Program-made: the position numbers and the translations under genes
Part shown: positions 50,764 through 57,428 of the stretch, in pieces
How positions within the stretch are numbered: position 1 is the stretch's first letter
Layout: each line of letters opens with the position of its first letter
Notes under the pieces: model-generated
Told to the model about the DNA's origin: nothing
Databases searched by the model: none
Seen by the model: only the letters and a program-made list of their open reading frames with translations
NCBI GenBank assembly: GCA_037443365.1
Contig: JBBIOM010000001.1
Location: forward strand, 91,485-155,484
Length of the DNA stretch: 64,000 bases
Reading direction: 5' to 3'
DNA from: Armatimonadota bacterium
GTDB taxonomy: Bacteria > Sysuimicrobiota > Sysuimicrobiia > Sysuimicrobiales > Humicultoraceae

Positions 50764-51726
50764 GTGGCTGAGACGGCGGCAACGCAGACAACGGTTCTCT
50801 CGTACGGATTGGGACCCATAGGAGCCGGCATCGCGGGACTGGCGCTCGACCGCGGGTACCGGATTGTCTCGGCGGTCGACATATCGCCCGACAAGGCCGG
50901 GAGCGACCTGGGCGTCCTGCTGGGACGCGCGAGACTTGGGGTGACGGTGACCGCTGATGTCGCCGCGGCCCTTGCCTGCAAGCCCAGGGTCGTCCTGCAC
51001 TCAACCCAATCGCACATCCCGCAGGTCATGCCCCAGCTCATGGCGTGCATCGAGGCAGGCGCCTGCGTCGTCTCCACATGCGAAGAGCTGGCGTTCCCGT
51101 GGTACCGTCACGACCACGAGGCCAGGCGCCTCGACGCGGCCGCGAAGGCCCACGGCGTCACGATCGTGGGCGTGGGCGTGAACCCCGGATTCGTGATGGA
51201 CCTGCTGCCCATCGTGCTAACGGCGCCCTGCCGCAAGGTGCGCGCCATCCGCGTCACGCGCGTGGTGGATGCGGGGTTGCGCCGCAAGCCCCTCCAGCAG
51301 AAGGTGGGCGACGGCCTCGACCGGGCCACCTTTGAGAAGGGTGTCGCGGAAGGCCGAATGGGGCACGTGGGGCTGCCCGAGTCCGTGGCGATGATCGCCG
51401 ATGCCCTGGGATGGCCGCTCGACTCAATCGAGGAGACGATCGAGCCGGTCATGGAGGGAGCCACGGTGCGCGGCCTGCACCAGGTGGCGAACGGCCTGCA
51501 GAGCAAGGAACCGGTCATCTCGCTGGACCTGACCATGGCCGTGGGCGCGGCGAATCCGCGGGACTCGGTGACAATCGAAGGCGAGCCGCCCATCGCCCTG
51601 ACCGTGTCCGGAGGCATTCACGGCGACGTCGCAACGTGCGCGATATCGGTGAACGCTATCCCGATGGTGCTGGCGTCGCCCCCAGGCCTGACCGCGCCCC
51701 ACCGCCTACCTGCGATCCATCGCTGA
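50764..51726 (+). CDS. NAD(P)-dependent amine dehydrogenase / dihydrodipicolinate reductase-like family protein
   Basis: The ORF has Rossmann motif YGLGPIGAG and later VGVNPGFVMD. It resembles the DapB-related amine dehydrogenase family. The start (50728 or 50764) is uncertain. Confidence 0.55.
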   Translation: MAETAATQTTVLSYGLGPIGAGIAGLALDRGYRIVSAVDISPDKAGSDLGVLLGRARLGVTVTADVAAALACKPRVVLHSTQSHIPQVMPQLMACIEAGACVVSTCEELAFPWYRHDHEARRLDAAAKAHGVTIVGVGVNPGFVMDLLPIVLTAPCRKVRAIRVTRVVDAGLRRKPLQQKVGDGLDRATFEKGVAEGRMGHVGLPESVAMIADALGWPLDSIEETIEPVMEGATVRGLHQVANGLQSKEPVISLDLTMAVGAANPRDSVTIEGEPPIALTVSGGIHGDVATCAISVNAIPMVLASPPGLTAPHRLPAIHR

Positions 51727-52605
51727 TCGGGCGGCGGCTCGCAGAGCGCGTGCGCCCAGGTTGATGAGGTAGGCACCATCGGTCCCGGGCACCGGTAGGA
51801 GGTTCCAGGCAACGCGCAGGAGCGCCGCGGCGGCAAGCAGCGCCGCGGCCTCTCTTTGCGCCGGCAGAGCCAGCCCGGCAATGAGGGCTACTGAACCCAC
51901 CGCGGCATCGCAGAGCGGCCCCCAGGCAGCGATCCTTGCCCGCGCGCGAGGGGGCAGGAGCGCGGCGCCGGCGAGGTGCACGCGGAATCCGATGCTCCAG
52001 GGGGCGGCCTCCACCACGAGCGCGGCCGCGCGGGCGCCCGCGGTCAGCGCCGCAGCGGCGTGGGCCATCTCGTGGGTAAGCCCAAGGATCCAGACCAGGA
52101 ACGCCAGCGCCAGCAGGCGCGACACCTCTGGCTCCGAGTAGAGAGCGCGAAGCCAGCCAGCGTGCTGTGCGCCCAAGACCGCGCCCGCAACCAGCAGCGC
52201 GGCAACCCCGAAAGCCCGCACCCATGCCGGAATCCTGTGCAGCAACCGGCAGAGCGGCAGCATAGCGGCCGCGTTGGCGATGACCACTCGTGACGAGAAG
52301 GGCCTGAGCACTTGCGGCGCCTCGGCGCCGCAGGACACCAGACCAGCATCGACCAGACGTCTCACGAACCGCGCCACGTCCGCCGCGTCCAGTCGCGGCG
52401 CCGCCCCGGCCACATCGCGCGACAGCTCTTCGAGCCCGCGCGTACCGTCCATCAGGGCCAGCAAGGACGCCTCGGGCTCGCCCGCCTGGAAGCAGCGCCC
52501 CCCGGAGGCGTGGACGATCCAGCGCGCACCCCCCTGCCCCCCGACTTCCCTGGTGACGCGCACGCCCGGGAGCAGGCACGGTCGCGCCTGGCTCAGGTCG
52601 TCCAC
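51706..52605 (-). CDS. M50 (site-2 protease-like) zinc metalloprotease with PqqD-like N-terminal domain; putative RiPP leader peptidase
   Basis: This is the C-terminal 300 codons of track ORF 51706..53307, from GTG 52605 (13-nt overlap with the permease stop). It has HExxH inside a TM helix (LGLTHEMAHAAA) and the second M50 motif NxxPxxxxDG (NLLPVPGTDG). The N-terminal about 85 aa follow the PqqD/RRE pattern (LLPGVRVTRE...LLALMDGTRGLEELSRDV). Confidence 0.7.
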   Translation of the reverse strand: MDDLSQARPCLLPGVRVTREVGGQGGARWIVHASGGRCFQAGEPEASLLALMDGTRGLEELSRDVAGAAPRLDAADVARFVRRLVDAGLVSCGAEAPQVLRPFSSRVVIANAAAMLPLCRLLHRIPAWVRAFGVAALLVAGAVLGAQHAGWLRALYSEPEVSRLLALAFLVWILGLTHEMAHAAAALTAGARAAALVVEAAPWSIGFRVHLAGAALLPPRARARIAAWGPLCDAAVGSVALIAGLALPAQREAAALLAAAALLRVAWNLLPVPGTDGAYLINLGARALRAAARSAMDRR

Positions 52606-53318
52606 CTGAACCGCCGCACGGATACAACTGCTCCGATCAGTCCCCACAGCGCCAGCACCCCCAACTCGGTGACGACCGAGGACGCGTCCCCACCGCGGGC
52701 GGCCGCCCTGAGCCCGCGCAAGAAGTATGTCAGCGGAAGCGCGCCGGAGAGGCGCGCCAGCGCGGCGGGCAGCATCTCTACCGGGAAGTAGGCGCCACTC
52801 AGGAACGTCATGGGGAAGAACAGGAAGGCGGCGATCGAGTTCGCGGCCTCGACCGAGCGCGCCAGGACGCCCACCGCGAACCCGGTAGCCAGGAAGGCTG
52901 GTACGCCTACGCACATGACCGCCGCGAGCGTACCCGGCCGAGCAGAGAACCGGACGTCGAAGAGCCCCGCTCCTATGGCCAGCAGCTCCACGCCCACGGC
53001 GAGCACAACCGCCCCGCGCACCAGCATCTGAGCCAGTACGAGCTGCCAGGCCGGGATCGGGACGAGGACCAGGCGCTTGAGGAACCCGCTGCTGCGGTAG
53101 TGGGTCACGACCACACCGATGCTGTAGTAGGCCGTGGATGCCAGCACCATCCCGAGCACGCCCGGGACAAGAAAGACCATCTGCCCGGGTTCGCGCGCGA
53201 ACACGCTGCCCAGCAGCACCAGCAGGAAGGCCGGAAAGAAGAAGGTCCAGAAGGCGGCCTGCGGCGTGCGCCAGAACAGCCTGGCCTCCATCAGGACGAG
53301 GCGCCACAAGCCCGTCAT
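52593..53318 (-). CDS. ABC-2 type transporter permease
   Basis: ORF 52593..53513 trimmed to MTGLWRLVLMEARLFWR at ATG 53318, a 4-nt overlap with the ATPase stop. It has six predicted TM helices typical of ABC-2 exporters. Confidence 0.8.
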   Translation of the reverse strand: MTGLWRLVLMEARLFWRTPQAAFWTFFFPAFLLVLLGSVFAREPGQMVFLVPGVLGMVLASTAYYSIGVVVTHYRSSGFLKRLVLVPIPAWQLVLAQMLVRGAVVLAVGVELLAIGAGLFDVRFSARPGTLAAVMCVGVPAFLATGFAVGVLARSVEAANSIAAFLFFPMTFLSGAYFPVEMLPAALARLSGALPLTYFLRGLRAAARGGDASSVVTELGVLALWGLIGAVVSVRRFRWTT

Positions 53319-54052
53319 GTCGGTCCTCCTGGGAGCGGGGAATCCTGGGTCAGTTCCAGGAAGGTTTCTTCGAGCCCGCCGCGGCCAGCACGCGCCAGCG
53401 CTGCCACGGTGCCCTGCGCGAGTACCCTGCCGCGGTGGATGATGGCCACCCTGTCGCACAGCGACTCGGCCTCGTCCAGGTGATGCGTGGCCAGAAGCAC
53501 GGTGCGCCCGCATGCCCGCGCCTCGTGAATGAGATCCCAGAGATCCCGGCGCGCGTGCGCATCGAGCCCTGCCGTGGGCTCGTCCAGGATCAGGAGCTCG
53601 GGATCTCCGACCAGGGCCAGCGCCAGCAGGAACCGTCGCCGCTGCCCGCCTGAGAGCTGGCCGTACATGGCCGCCGAACGGTCGCCCAGACCTGTCCGGG
53701 CGAGCAGCCGGTGCGCCTCGATACGGCGCGGGTAGAAACCCCCGAGGAACTCCAGCGCCTCCCCCAGGCGCAGGTAAGGGTGGAAGACCGCCTCCTGCAG
53801 CTGCACGCCTATGCGCCGCCGCAGGCCCAGCGCCCCGCCCCGAGGATCGAGCCCCAGCACACGCGCCCGGCCCGCATCAGGGCGCTGCAGCCCCACCAGT
53901 ATCTCGATGGTCGTGGTCTTGCCGGCGCCGTTGCGCCCCAGGAGCCCGAATACCTCGCCTTCCTTGACCTCCAGGTCAAGCCCGTCCAGAGCCACGACGC
54001 TGCCGTACCGCCTGCGCAGGCCTTCCACCTCGATTGCCAGCGCGTCAGGCAT
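53315..54052 (-). CDS. ABC transporter ATP-binding protein (DrrA/SagG-like exporter ATPase)
   Basis: ORF trimmed to MPDALAIEVEGLRRRYG at ATG 54052. It has Walker A GRNGAGKTT, signature LSGGQRRR, and Walker B LILDEP. Confidence 0.9.
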   Translation of the reverse strand: MPDALAIEVEGLRRRYGSVVALDGLDLEVKEGEVFGLLGRNGAGKTTTIEILVGLQRPDAGRARVLGLDPRGGALGLRRRIGVQLQEAVFHPYLRLGEALEFLGGFYPRRIEAHRLLARTGLGDRSAAMYGQLSGGQRRRFLLALALVGDPELLILDEPTAGLDAHARRDLWDLIHEARACGRTVLLATHHLDEAESLCDRVAIIHRGRVLAQGTVAALARAGRGGLEETFLELTQDSPLPGGPT

Positions 54053-57174: not shown

Positions 57175-57249
57175 TGCTCGCCTCCACCTGCATGCCAGGT
57201 GAGCCTCTCACGCCGCTCTCACGCCGGCGCGTACCGTGACATCGGCCCT

Positions 57250-57288
57250 GGGGGCGGCCGCCGGCAGCGATGGCACCCCGCCGCCCCC
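57250..57288 (-). promoter_or_regulatory. GC-rich hairpin between precursor gene and modification genes (possible processing/attenuation structure)
   Basis: On the reverse strand, GGGGGCGGC (57288..57280) pairs perfectly with GCCGCCCCC (57258..57250) around a 21-nt loop. It begins 15 nt after the precursor stop and has no U-tract. Confidence 0.45.
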
Positions 57289-57302
57289 GTGGGCTGGGCG
57301 AC

Positions 57303-57428
57303 CTACATGTTCTCGCCGCCGCCACCACCGCCGCCGCTGCAGCAGCAGCAACAACAACACGCGATGATGATGTCACCGCCGCGGTCGAACAGGGTCATGC
57401 TCTCGAGCTCGACAATCTGCAGTTCCAC
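57303..57428 (-). CDS. TOMM/LAP precursor peptide, 41 aa: MELQIVELESMTLFDRGGDIIIACCCCCCCSGGGGGGGENM
   Basis: Hand-translated, because it is below the track's size cutoff. GGAGGTG is followed by 9 nt and then GTG 57428, and the stop TAG is at 57303..57305. It lies 128 nt upstream of the C-D-B genes on the same strand. The core is Cys7-Ser-Gly7. The alternative Ala-rich frame listed in the track (57137..57376) lacks an RBS and runs into the C gene. Confidence 0.8.
   Translation of the reverse strand: MELQIVELESMTLFDRGGDIIIACCCCCCCSGGGGGGGENM

Follow-up and report, generated by a model that had tools for sequence, protein, structure and literature searches.

A homopolymeric seven-cysteine precursor in a probable linear azole-containing peptide operon of Armatimonadota

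Introduction

The streptolysin S-type cytolysins (sagA-I) derive from precursors whose cores consist of glycine plus at least ten contiguous heterocyclizable residues (Cox et al. 2015, PMC4603692). Together with the uncharacterized 'propionisin' group, they are the systems closest in core design to the gene cluster described here. This cluster is located on the minus strand of a 64,000-nucleotide (nt) stretch of DNA from an Armatimonadota bacterium (assembly GCA_037443365.1, contig JBBIOM010000001.1, positions 91,485 to 155,484), which is called the window throughout and to which all coordinates without a locus label refer. It comprises seven genes in the order A-C-D-B-ATPase-permease-protease (51706-57428). 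In our judgment, it is probably a self-contained operon for a linear azole-containing peptide (LAP) or thiazole/oxazole-modified microcin (TOMM), in which a standard pathway would act on an unusual substrate, a homopolymeric core of seven cysteines.

In SagA, the precursor of streptolysin S, the heterocyclizable run begins CCCCC. Contiguous 2,4'-linked azoles derived from adjacent Cys, Ser, or Thr residues are known from plantazolicin, which contains five in a row, twice, and from telomestatin, which contains eight. In McbA, the precursor of microcin B17 (mcbA-G), poly-Gly precedes a core whose spaced Cys and Ser residues give rise to isolated and bis-heterocycles, with no contiguous run, and the leader is removed by the housekeeping protease TldD/E. 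The daptide peptidase MpaP carries an RRE (RiPP recognition element) fused N-terminally to a site-2 protease, and the daptide leader motif ELExMEAP ends at the cleavage site; certain daptide clusters also hold genes for a YcaO protein and an azoline dehydrogenase (bioRxiv 10.1101/2023.03.08.531785).

Results

Organization of the gene cluster

The lengths of all junctions were computed from the start codons in the public gene calls for the contig. The gene encoding the precursor peptide A (57303-57428) is separated by a gap of 128 nt from the C gene (56200-57174, 324 residues), which overlaps the D gene (54884-56218, 444 residues) by 19 nt. The B gene (54045-54872, 275 residues) follows after 11 nt and shares 8 nt with the gene for an ATP-binding cassette (ABC) ATPase (53315-54052, 245 residues). 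The latter overlaps the gene for an ABC-2 permease (52593-53318, 241 residues) by 4 nt, and this in turn overlaps the protease gene (51706-52605, 299 residues) by 13 nt. At its end, the protease gene runs for 21 nt into the convergent plus-strand gene of a DAP_DH_C protein (50728-51726). An earlier note on this DNA had described seven tightly coupled minus-strand genes, and every overlap and gap that it gave, including the convergent one at the flank, was reproduced with the public start codons.

The precursor peptide

Gene A encodes a peptide of 41 residues with the sequence MELQIVELESMTLFDRGGDIIIA-CCCCCCC-S-GGGGGGGENM, which can be divided into a conserved leader, MELQIVELESMTLFD(R), a variable linker, GGDIIIA, the core, CCCCCCC-S, and a tail, GGGGGGGENM. 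The seven Cys codons occupy positions 57339-57359 and correspond to residues Cys24-Cys30, followed by Ser31. The start codon is GTG, located 7 nt after the Shine-Dalgarno sequence GGAGGTG (57436-57442). No second open reading frame (ORF) in the seven-gene unit is a candidate for the substrate. Based on the base composition, we estimate that ∼1e-6 runs of seven cysteines are expected in a six-frame translation of 64 kb. Because of this low expectation and the recurrence of the run at every orthologous locus, it is not a product of chance.

An orthologous short ORF preceded by a GGAGG site is present in every related contig that covers the upstream region. All 11 distinct orthologous precursors found in this way carry seven to nine contiguous cysteines (seven in nine of them, eight or nine in the rest). 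Their leaders follow the consensus L-[QE]-[IV]-x-E-L-[ED]...[LM]-[FL]-[DQ], and the linker is variable. The Cys run is followed by one variable residue (S, Y, N, I, or H) in eight of the 11 peptides, and the other three pass straight into glycine. Then come one to nine small residues, mostly Gly, and in all 11 cases an acidic residue two or three positions before the C-terminal end. The precursors of the clade terminate in M, L, or Q. At one locus (L024:8221-8503), we found two tandem precursor genes with distinct leaders (MEPELQVIELEGLTLFDRE... and MEQSEFADLQVIELDSIMLQRE...) and an identical C7-GGGE core.

The choice between TGT and TGC inside the Cys run varies among the orthologues, and a comparison of the first 31 precursor codons with those of the related locus L019 revealed 11 synonymous and a single non-synonymous codon difference. 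Both the shuffling of synonymous Cys codons and this 11:1 ratio demonstrate selection on the peptide rather than on a trinucleotide or DNA repeat, and show that the precursor is under purifying selection. Its identity to the L019 counterpart (93%) exceeds that of D (59%), B (52%), C (45%), the protease (45%), and even the flanking AhcY (83%). By this comparison, no other product of the cluster is as well conserved as the precursor.

A phmmer search of the precursor against 1.84 billion representative proteins returned a single match, itself an orthologous precursor. None of the NCBIfam and Pfam models matched the precursor of the window or nine related or distant poly-Cys precursors, and we found no description of this cluster or of these precursors in the open-access literature. 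Annotation probably misses the substrate even where the enzymes are recognized, since poly-Cys precursors have no curated model.

The azole-forming enzymes

The D protein matched the Pfam family YcaO (PF02624) at 1.6e-64 and the azoline-forming SagD model TIGR03604 over its full length (profile 1-377/377) with 262.2 bits, above the cut-off of 219.25. It ends in ...NTHPHPFP, and the sequence HPHPFP, a PxPxP motif, is encoded at 54887-54904. Across 16 homologues, residues P440-H441-P442-F443-P444 are unchanged, as are the acidic motifs for ATP and Mg, GE..ER and E..ER. The closest solved structures are those of the cyanobactin heterocyclases LynD, TruD, and MusD (E 7e-20 to 3e-15). These matches identify D as a predicted azoline-forming YcaO cyclodehydratase of the SagD type.

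The C protein scored 64.4 bits with TIGR03882 ('TOMM precursor leader peptide-binding protein'; cut-off 36.9). It gave a weak ThiF match and failed the SagC model TIGR03603 (32.7 bits, cut-off 187.65). Its AlphaFold (AF2) model, which is based on 24 homologues and has a mean predicted local distance difference test score (pLDDT) of 79.7, shows an N-terminal beta3-alpha3 module (residues 16-82) followed by a Rossmann-like domain. A Foldseek search with this model retrieved the RRE plus E1-like halves of TruD (5.6e-18) and LynD (5.9e-17) as well as MccB (2e-13), each aligned over ∼325-355 columns, and further PaaA and MoeB/ThiF (∼1e-9). As modeled, C consists of an N-terminal RRE and an E1/ThiF-like domain and would be the leader-binding partner of the cyclodehydratase.

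The B protein scored 109.9 bits with the SagB model TIGR03605 (cut-off 78.4) and matched PF00881 at 1.3e-17, as expected for a SagB-type azoline dehydrogenase dependent on flavin mononucleotide (FMN), to which we assign it by sequence. The Lys-Tyr motif of such enzymes reads Arg-Tyr in the window (DRYGARGYR, residues 196-204; residue 197 is encoded at 54283-54285). Among the relatives, the Tyr is retained, and the preceding position is Arg in the closest ones, Val in L005, L020, and L021, and Lys in most others. Melby and colleagues reportedly showed in 2014 that the Lys of this motif is needed for the activity of BalhB.

The trio had been read in the earlier note as an E1-like partner with an RRE, a YcaO protein ending in HPHPFP, and a SagB-type dehydrogenase, a reading with which both the curated cut-offs and the structure model agree. 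We also checked for a placement of D among non-azoline YcaOs or of C and B in unrelated families, but all three proteins pass the cut-offs of azole-type models. Among the Pfam and NCBIfam matches of the seven products there are no class-switching enzymes, that is, no PatG-type macrocyclase, pyridine synthase, or lanthipeptide dehydratase.

We consider it improbable that the YcaO protein makes thioamides or amidines instead, or that the pathway stops at thiazolines, in which case the product would not be a polythiazole. Such an outcome would fit the partial match of D to the thioamide-type (McrA-type) model TIGR03266 and the loss of the Lys from the Lys-Tyr motif of B in some members of the clade, which have Arg or Val instead. 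But the TIGR03266 score of 97.1 bits is far under the cut-off of 365, whereas the cut-off of the SagD-type model is exceeded with a full-length alignment. Moreover, the E1-like/RRE partner and the SagB dehydrogenase are present, no TfuA gene is part of the unit, and the PxPxP end, which is typical of azoline formers, is invariant. B is also kept in every member of the clade. The model-based placement of D and the retained dehydrogenase therefore make a thioamide or azoline-only product unlikely.

Transporter and protease

The ATPase matched PF00005 at 1.3e-26 and the drrA model TIGR01188 with 211.5 bits, under the subfamily cut-off of 312. The permease matched PF01061 at 7e-25 and scored 66.5 bits with the drrB model TIGR01247 (cut-off 223) and 25.4 bits with the SagH model NF038293 (cut-off 450). 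By these matches, the two proteins are DrrA/DrrB-like ABC-2 components. The earlier description of a DrrA-like ATPase and an ABC-2 permease was borne out in this way, but the likeness to sagG/H/I that it had also proposed holds only at the level of the superfamily.

None of the seven products has a Pfam match to the CaaX family. This agrees with the previous observation that a membrane protease resembling M50 takes the place of the SagE-like enzyme, and this protease appears to be RRE-fused as well. Its best curated match is the daptide HExxH metalloprotease NF041824 (E 1.4e-17, profile 14-295/379). The score of 63.9 bits compares with an equivalog cut-off of 300 and suggests a homologue of the daptide peptidase, not an equivalog. 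The Pfam models M50 (PF02163, 17 bits, cut-off 27.2) and M50B (PF13398, 16.8 bits, cut-off 26) and likewise PqqD were matched below threshold. Two motifs in predicted helices, HEMAH (residues 178-182, 52060-52074) and NLLPVPGTDG (residues 268-277, 51775-51804), correspond to the HExxH and NxxPxxxxDG motifs of the site-2-protease zinc site, and residues H178, E179, H182, N268, and D276 are unchanged in seven homologues.

The AlphaFold model of the protease (pLDDT 71) combines an N-terminal beta3-alpha3 domain with five long helices. In Foldseek searches, the N-terminus retrieved PqqD and lasso-peptide B1 proteins, with target-normalized TM scores of 0.64-0.72, and also the RREs of TruD, LynD, and ThcOx. 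The membrane part retrieved SpoIVFB and the Methanocaldococcus jannaschii site-2 protease mjS2P (E 0.6-0.7). The RREs of the protease and of C match each other weakly and in the last helix only (E 0.022), which is uninformative. The model suggests an intramembrane site-2-type metalloprotease with a fused RRE at approximately residues 16-86, which we regard as the putative leader peptidase. The leader of the precursor carries the sequence ELESM at residues 7-11.

Distribution and genomic context

Among 5.8 billion proteins, D has 15 relatives besides itself at 56-77% identity, all of them metagenomic, and beyond these the identity falls to 35%. The labeled metagenome-assembled genomes in this clade belong to Armatimonadota or Candidatus Nitrosymbiomonas. 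In a neighbor-joining tree of the fetched YcaOs, the Armatimonadota clade forms one group, within which every member with available upstream sequence has a C7-C9 core.

For synteny, the proteins encoded in the window were compared with all fetched loci by tblastn. The seven genes occur in the same order in L003, L005, L015-L018, L020, and L022-L024, and L007, whose 5' end is cut, retains the last five, D-B-ABC-ABC2-M50, in that order. The genes are thus co-conserved in every related contig that is long enough. Most of these loci also share the flanks, with ahcY-comFC at one border and DAP_DH-aminotransferase at the opposite one, and even the 21-nt convergent overlap. In the sublineage of L005 and L020, the seven genes instead follow fatty-acid oxidation genes, without comFC or DAP_DH. 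This relocation indicates that the cluster moved as a block whose borders are the seven genes. We had considered comFC, DAP_DH, and the aminotransferase as possible cluster members and rejected them, since they are absent where the cluster has relocated.

In the window, one flank contains the genes for EF-G, DnaG, RpoD, a GYD protein, AhcY, and a comFC-like protein with a double zinc ribbon and a phosphoribosyltransferase (PRTase) domain. The other contains those for the DAP_DH_C protein, a class I/II aminotransferase, and transport. According to the gene calls, no transposase or integrase gene lies within ∼10 kb of the cluster, and the sole tRNA gene of the window is located at 17.6 kb, 34 kb from the cluster. 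These data fit the housekeeping surroundings, free of a mobile-element or tRNA border, that had been noted before. The G+C content at third codon positions is 0.79-0.88 in the cluster genes and 0.81-0.90 in the flanks. No close plasmid relative was detected: the best plasmid YcaO is 35% identical, and the sole DNA match to a plasmid covers 60 bp of an ABC gene. The proposal that the cluster is chromosomally integrated and not recently mobile is supported by the flanks, which are kept in relatives whose YcaOs are 59-77% identical, by the host-like third-position G+C content, and by the lack of a plasmid relative. All of this supports a settled chromosomal resident, as far as sequence comparison can tell.

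The comFC-like gene (57509-58255) is a complete ORF of 248 residues, of which the public gene calls annotate just a 64-residue C-terminal fragment.

Non-coding elements around the precursor gene

The region upstream of the precursor (57429..57500, minus strand) contains a TAGAAC/TAGAAT box and the GGAGGTG Shine-Dalgarno sequence. A stretch of 89 nt is near-identical in six orthologous loci, whereas the adjacent comFC protein is 65-73% identical, and we infer that it functions as a promoter or 5' untranslated region (5'UTR) of the precursor gene. Folding of the 5'UTR is no better than that of shuffled sequences (z +1.44). Within 57429-57520, a UCCU/AGGA pairing could mask the Shine-Dalgarno sequence, and the window has a compensatory C-G for a U-A pair.

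Directly 3' of the precursor stop codon, a GC-rich hairpin (GGGGGCGGC...GCCGCCCCC; 57250..57288, minus strand) is present in both the minimum free energy and the centroid fold; it has no U-tract. Its GGGGGC/GCCCCC stem is kept in five of six aligned close orthologues, the sequence of the sixth (L006) ending before the 3' arm. The loop lengths differ widely, and L002, L003, and L022 show an alternative stem extension, CUGUG/CACAG. This element is probably an intercistronic stabilizer or a partial terminator, and as such would raise the level of precursor mRNA over that of enzyme mRNA. Just upstream of the ribosome-binding site of C, a direct repeat (CGGCGTGAGAG x2, 57196-57226) is found, and the pattern TGAGAG-N5-TGAGAG is retained in six close orthologues.

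In mycobacteria, polycysteine short ORFs couple downstream expression to the cysteine supply (bioRxiv 10.1101/834739). By this precedent, the poly-Cys ORF, which precedes the first enzyme gene at a distance of 128 nt and is separated from it by a hairpin, could be mainly a regulatory leader, that is, a cysteine-responsive attenuator, and not an enzyme substrate. We consider this extremely unlikely. What lies downstream is a complete azole-forming set and no cysteine metabolism, and the seven-gene unit offers no alternative substrate ORF. Strong purifying selection also acts on the peptide outside the Cys run, in the leader and at the acidic C-terminal end. The leader bears an RRE-type recognition motif, and L024 possesses two tandem copies of the precursor. 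In addition, the RNA between A and C folds no better than shuffles (z = +0.97), and no Rfam family was matched at E <= 1 across 48000-62000. Attenuator and riboswitch were consequently rejected for want of an Rfam match or unusual folding, and in view of the protein-level selection on the leader.

Proposed pathway

We propose that the cluster encodes a LAP pathway of the following kind, whose chemistry is inferred from the enzyme families. The 41-residue precursor would be translated from its strong Shine-Dalgarno site, and its conserved leader, L-Q-I-V-E-L-E-S-M-T-L-F-D, would be bound by the RRE of C. With ATP, C and D would then convert Cys24-Cys30, and possibly Ser31, into thiazolines and an oxazoline. 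The SagB-type flavoprotein, using FMN, would oxidize these rings to a contiguous 2,4'-linked hepta-thiazole or octa-azole rod. The RRE-fused membrane protease would read the same leader through its ELExM-type motif and cleave it off at the membrane. By analogy to the daptide peptidase, the cut might fall near F14|D15, just after ELESMTLF. A cut directly before Cys24 would be impossible, since the carbonyl of Ala23 enters the first ring. Finally, the DrrAB-like ABC-2 pump would export the product and may protect the producer. The predicted product is an amphiphile, composed of a rigid hydrophobic polythiazole and a flexible Gly7 tail that ends in Glu-Asn-Met and thus contributes an acidic residue. 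The calculated monoisotopic mass of the complete precursor is 4173.690 without modification, 4033.507 when it carries seven thiazoles, and 4013.481 when an oxazole is added to these, each azole lowering the mass by 20.026 Da. Candidate mature forms would be DRGG...ENM (2369.687 or 2349.661) and A-C7S-G7ENM (1530.237 or 1510.211).

Several points weigh against this proposal. The Foldseek E-values of the protease all exceed 0.02 and its curated matches are all below cut-off, so that they are supportive only, and cleavage at F14|D15 is suggested purely by analogy. Some members of the clade may be impaired in the oxidation to azoles, owing to the change of Lys to Arg or Val in the Lys-Tyr motif of B. 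Processing may also halt before all seven cysteines are cyclized, because a growing polyazole is rigid. Our scan found no sigma-70 promoter consensus, and the scan for intrinsic terminators returned four terminator-like matches, which is the chance level, one of them inside the precursor ORF. All members of the cluster family come from metagenome assemblies and are known from their sequences alone. Lastly, an antibiotic is no better explanation than a physiological role for a cluster that is stably inherited in the vertical line and whose precursor is so extremely conserved.

Possible roles of the product

A secreted membrane-active or antibacterial peptide, by analogy to the streptolysin-S-type polyazoles, appears to be the most likely role, and it is the least certain step of our proposal. 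The same biosynthesis could instead yield a factor that is conserved in the lineage for physiological reasons and is no toxin, e.g., a copper-binding or redox-active polythiazole or thiol peptide. In such a molecule, adjacent thiazole nitrogens or unmodified cysteines would chelate the metal, and the pump would serve to bring the peptide to the envelope or release it into the medium. This is rather unlikely. In its favor, the chromosomal location of the cluster has stayed the same while the enzymes of the relatives diverged to identities of 45-60%, and the identities to L019 are the opposite of those usually seen with the hypervariable cores of antibiotics. Moreover, in one relocated copy (L020), the cluster is followed on the same strand by cation-efflux and CopC-CopD genes, with the gene of a CsoR-type repressor beyond. 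But these genes flank the cluster on this one contig only; in the close relative L005 their place is taken by a gene for an Lhr-like helicase, and no metal-related gene flanks the cluster in the window. Furthermore, no model of a known metallophore family matches, and fully oxidized thiazoles are weak ligands compared with thiolates.

L020 is the one contig on which a long sequence is available downstream of the relocated cluster. The order of genes there (L020:14561-20547, JGI Ga0484003_000263) is as follows: a CDF protein, a 576-residue unknown protein, an 800-residue CopC-CopD fusion, and two small proteins, next to which the gene for the CsoR-type metal repressor is located on the opposite strand. 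This neighborhood may hint at a connection to copper.

A more specific version, to which we give little credence, is a conserved polythiazole of seven to nine rings that serves the lineage as a structural or physiological molecule and acts within the envelope, in metal (copper) handling or electron transfer. We roughly estimate that such a rigid rod of conjugated thiazoles would approximately match the hydrophobic core of a membrane in length, and the flexible Gly tail with its acidic end could be its anchor. The near-constant ring number and precursor despite the drift of the enzymes, the vertically inherited housekeeping locus, and the one copy beside copper genes would fit such a function.

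Poly-Cys precursors at more distant loci

Poly-Cys precursors also occur in distant YcaO clades from soil metagenomes (30-38% identity), with C6 cores at the extreme C-terminus and a leader of the type MFxxLTxELLDL...; the core of one distant contig, L037, is W-C7-W. Such ORFs were found upstream of the YcaO match in L037, L039, L046, L051, L055, L058, L060, and L070, and further in L073, L074, L089, L090, and L097. Written out, the leader pattern is MF.xLT.ELLDL...G...[LY][FY]A, with runs of six or seven cysteines at the end, and it is found in soil and other metagenomes. Examples of such ends are ...VGCCCCCCKF, ...VVDCCCCCCSLGCCHP, and ...GSWCCCCCCCWSGNVTIQ. These distant clusters have the order A-C-D-B-ABC and no M50-like protease detectable by tblastn, and their precursors are matched by no curated family. 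To judge from these sequences, poly-Cys cores are a recurrent, undescribed theme among uncultured LAP clusters.

Other loci contain different Cys-rich ORFs. Two precursor-like ORFs of L036 (L036:600-1116) carry the unit AAPCACCHGGAYQ four times (MDIKAEVLKTESSYN-[AAPCACCHGGAYQ]x3-AAPAACCHGGE) and look like a multi-core LAP precursor. Long, repetitive, and extremely Cys-rich ORFs precede C-D-B in L083, L084, L094, L098, L099 (∼8.6 kb), L067, and L076, with repeats such as CQPMCAQPMC...CTNCTPCAGS and CAGCFECGGCGPCAECGGC... In the cultured strain Cystobacter fuscus NCWS (L014:9650-9860), a Gly/Cys-rich precursor ending in ...CGTINCGGGGCGGGAGCGIACCCSAANREQQ is encoded beside D-B-ABC-ABC2. The YcaO of this strain is 34% identical to D, and those of cultured strains in our scan reach 37%. 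The C. fuscus locus could serve as a culturable system for comparison.

Discussion

The cluster belongs to the broad TOMM/LAP kind, a well-known type of pathway, and is set apart by a substrate that is unusual and strongly conserved. With streptolysin S it shares a long uninterrupted heterocyclizable run after Gly/Ala, followed by a C-terminal extension, as well as B, C, and D enzymes on separate chains, a membrane protease of its own, and an exporter of the ABC-2 type. In contrast to the sag operon, the gene order is A-C-D-B, which had been pointed out for the window and is seen in the relatives as well. Here, the C protein matches TIGR03882 but does not reach the SagC cut-off, nor does the permease reach that of SagH, and a predicted RRE-fused site-2-type protease replaces SagE, which is a CaaX protease. 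The core is a homopolymer of seven to nine Cys (C7S, C7, C8, or C9) compared with at least ten mixed Cys, Ser, and Thr residues in sag, and it is followed by a Gly-rich tail. The hosts differ too, with an environmental lineage of Armatimonadota here and a Firmicute pathogen there. Judged from its core length and from its C protein, permease, and protease, the cluster is not a member of the sag family.

The protease points to the daptides, since its predicted domain architecture is that of MpaP and it is homologous to NF041824 over nearly its whole length, and the ELExM motif of the leader is similar to ELExMEAP. However, MpaB (DUF-RRE), the decarboxylase MpaC, the class-III aminotransferase, and the methyltransferase of daptide pathways are not part of the unit, and the neighboring class-I/II aminotransferase gene is not carried along when the cluster relocates. 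The C-terminal Thr is invariant in daptides, whereas the precursors described here end in Met, Leu, or Gln.

Microcin B17 resembles the cluster in its B/C/D trio, ABC exporter, Gly-rich precursor, and linear product; McbD is absent from the solved structures that match D at E <= 0.001. Contiguous 2,4'-linked azoles connect the proposed product with plantazolicin and with polyazoles of the telomestatin/YM-216391 type. Plantazolicin, however, is N-methylated and mixes Cys, Thr, and Ser, whereas no methyltransferase is encoded here and the core is almost purely Cys. The telomestatin-type compounds are macrocyclic and mostly oxazole, and no macrocyclase is present in our cluster. The cyanobactin enzymes LynD, TruD, and MusD have the same RRE-E1-like-YcaO organization, but there the C and D parts are fused and accompanied by PatA/PatG-type proteases and macrocyclases, whereas here C and D are separate and translationally coupled, without a PatA/G homologue.

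The enzymology of the cluster is as expected, and standard rules for LAP detection would most likely flag its enzymes. If expressed, the operon would provide a minimal and genetically simple system for a long polythiazole without interruptions. The pharmacophore of the streptolysin-S-type toxins, of which, to our knowledge, the mature structures have never been solved, is presumed to be a contiguous polyazole, and a seven-cysteine core with a soluble Gly tail could be a tractable model for them. The putative leader peptidase would extend the RRE-fused site-2 peptidases, hitherto tied to daptides, to a plain azole pathway, and the shared ELExM-type leader motif would be useful in genome mining. 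We know of almost no characterized natural products from Armatimonadota. With its homopolymeric and hyper-conserved core, its predicted RRE-site-2 peptidase, and the parallel soil clades, this cluster would be a worthwhile target for expression.

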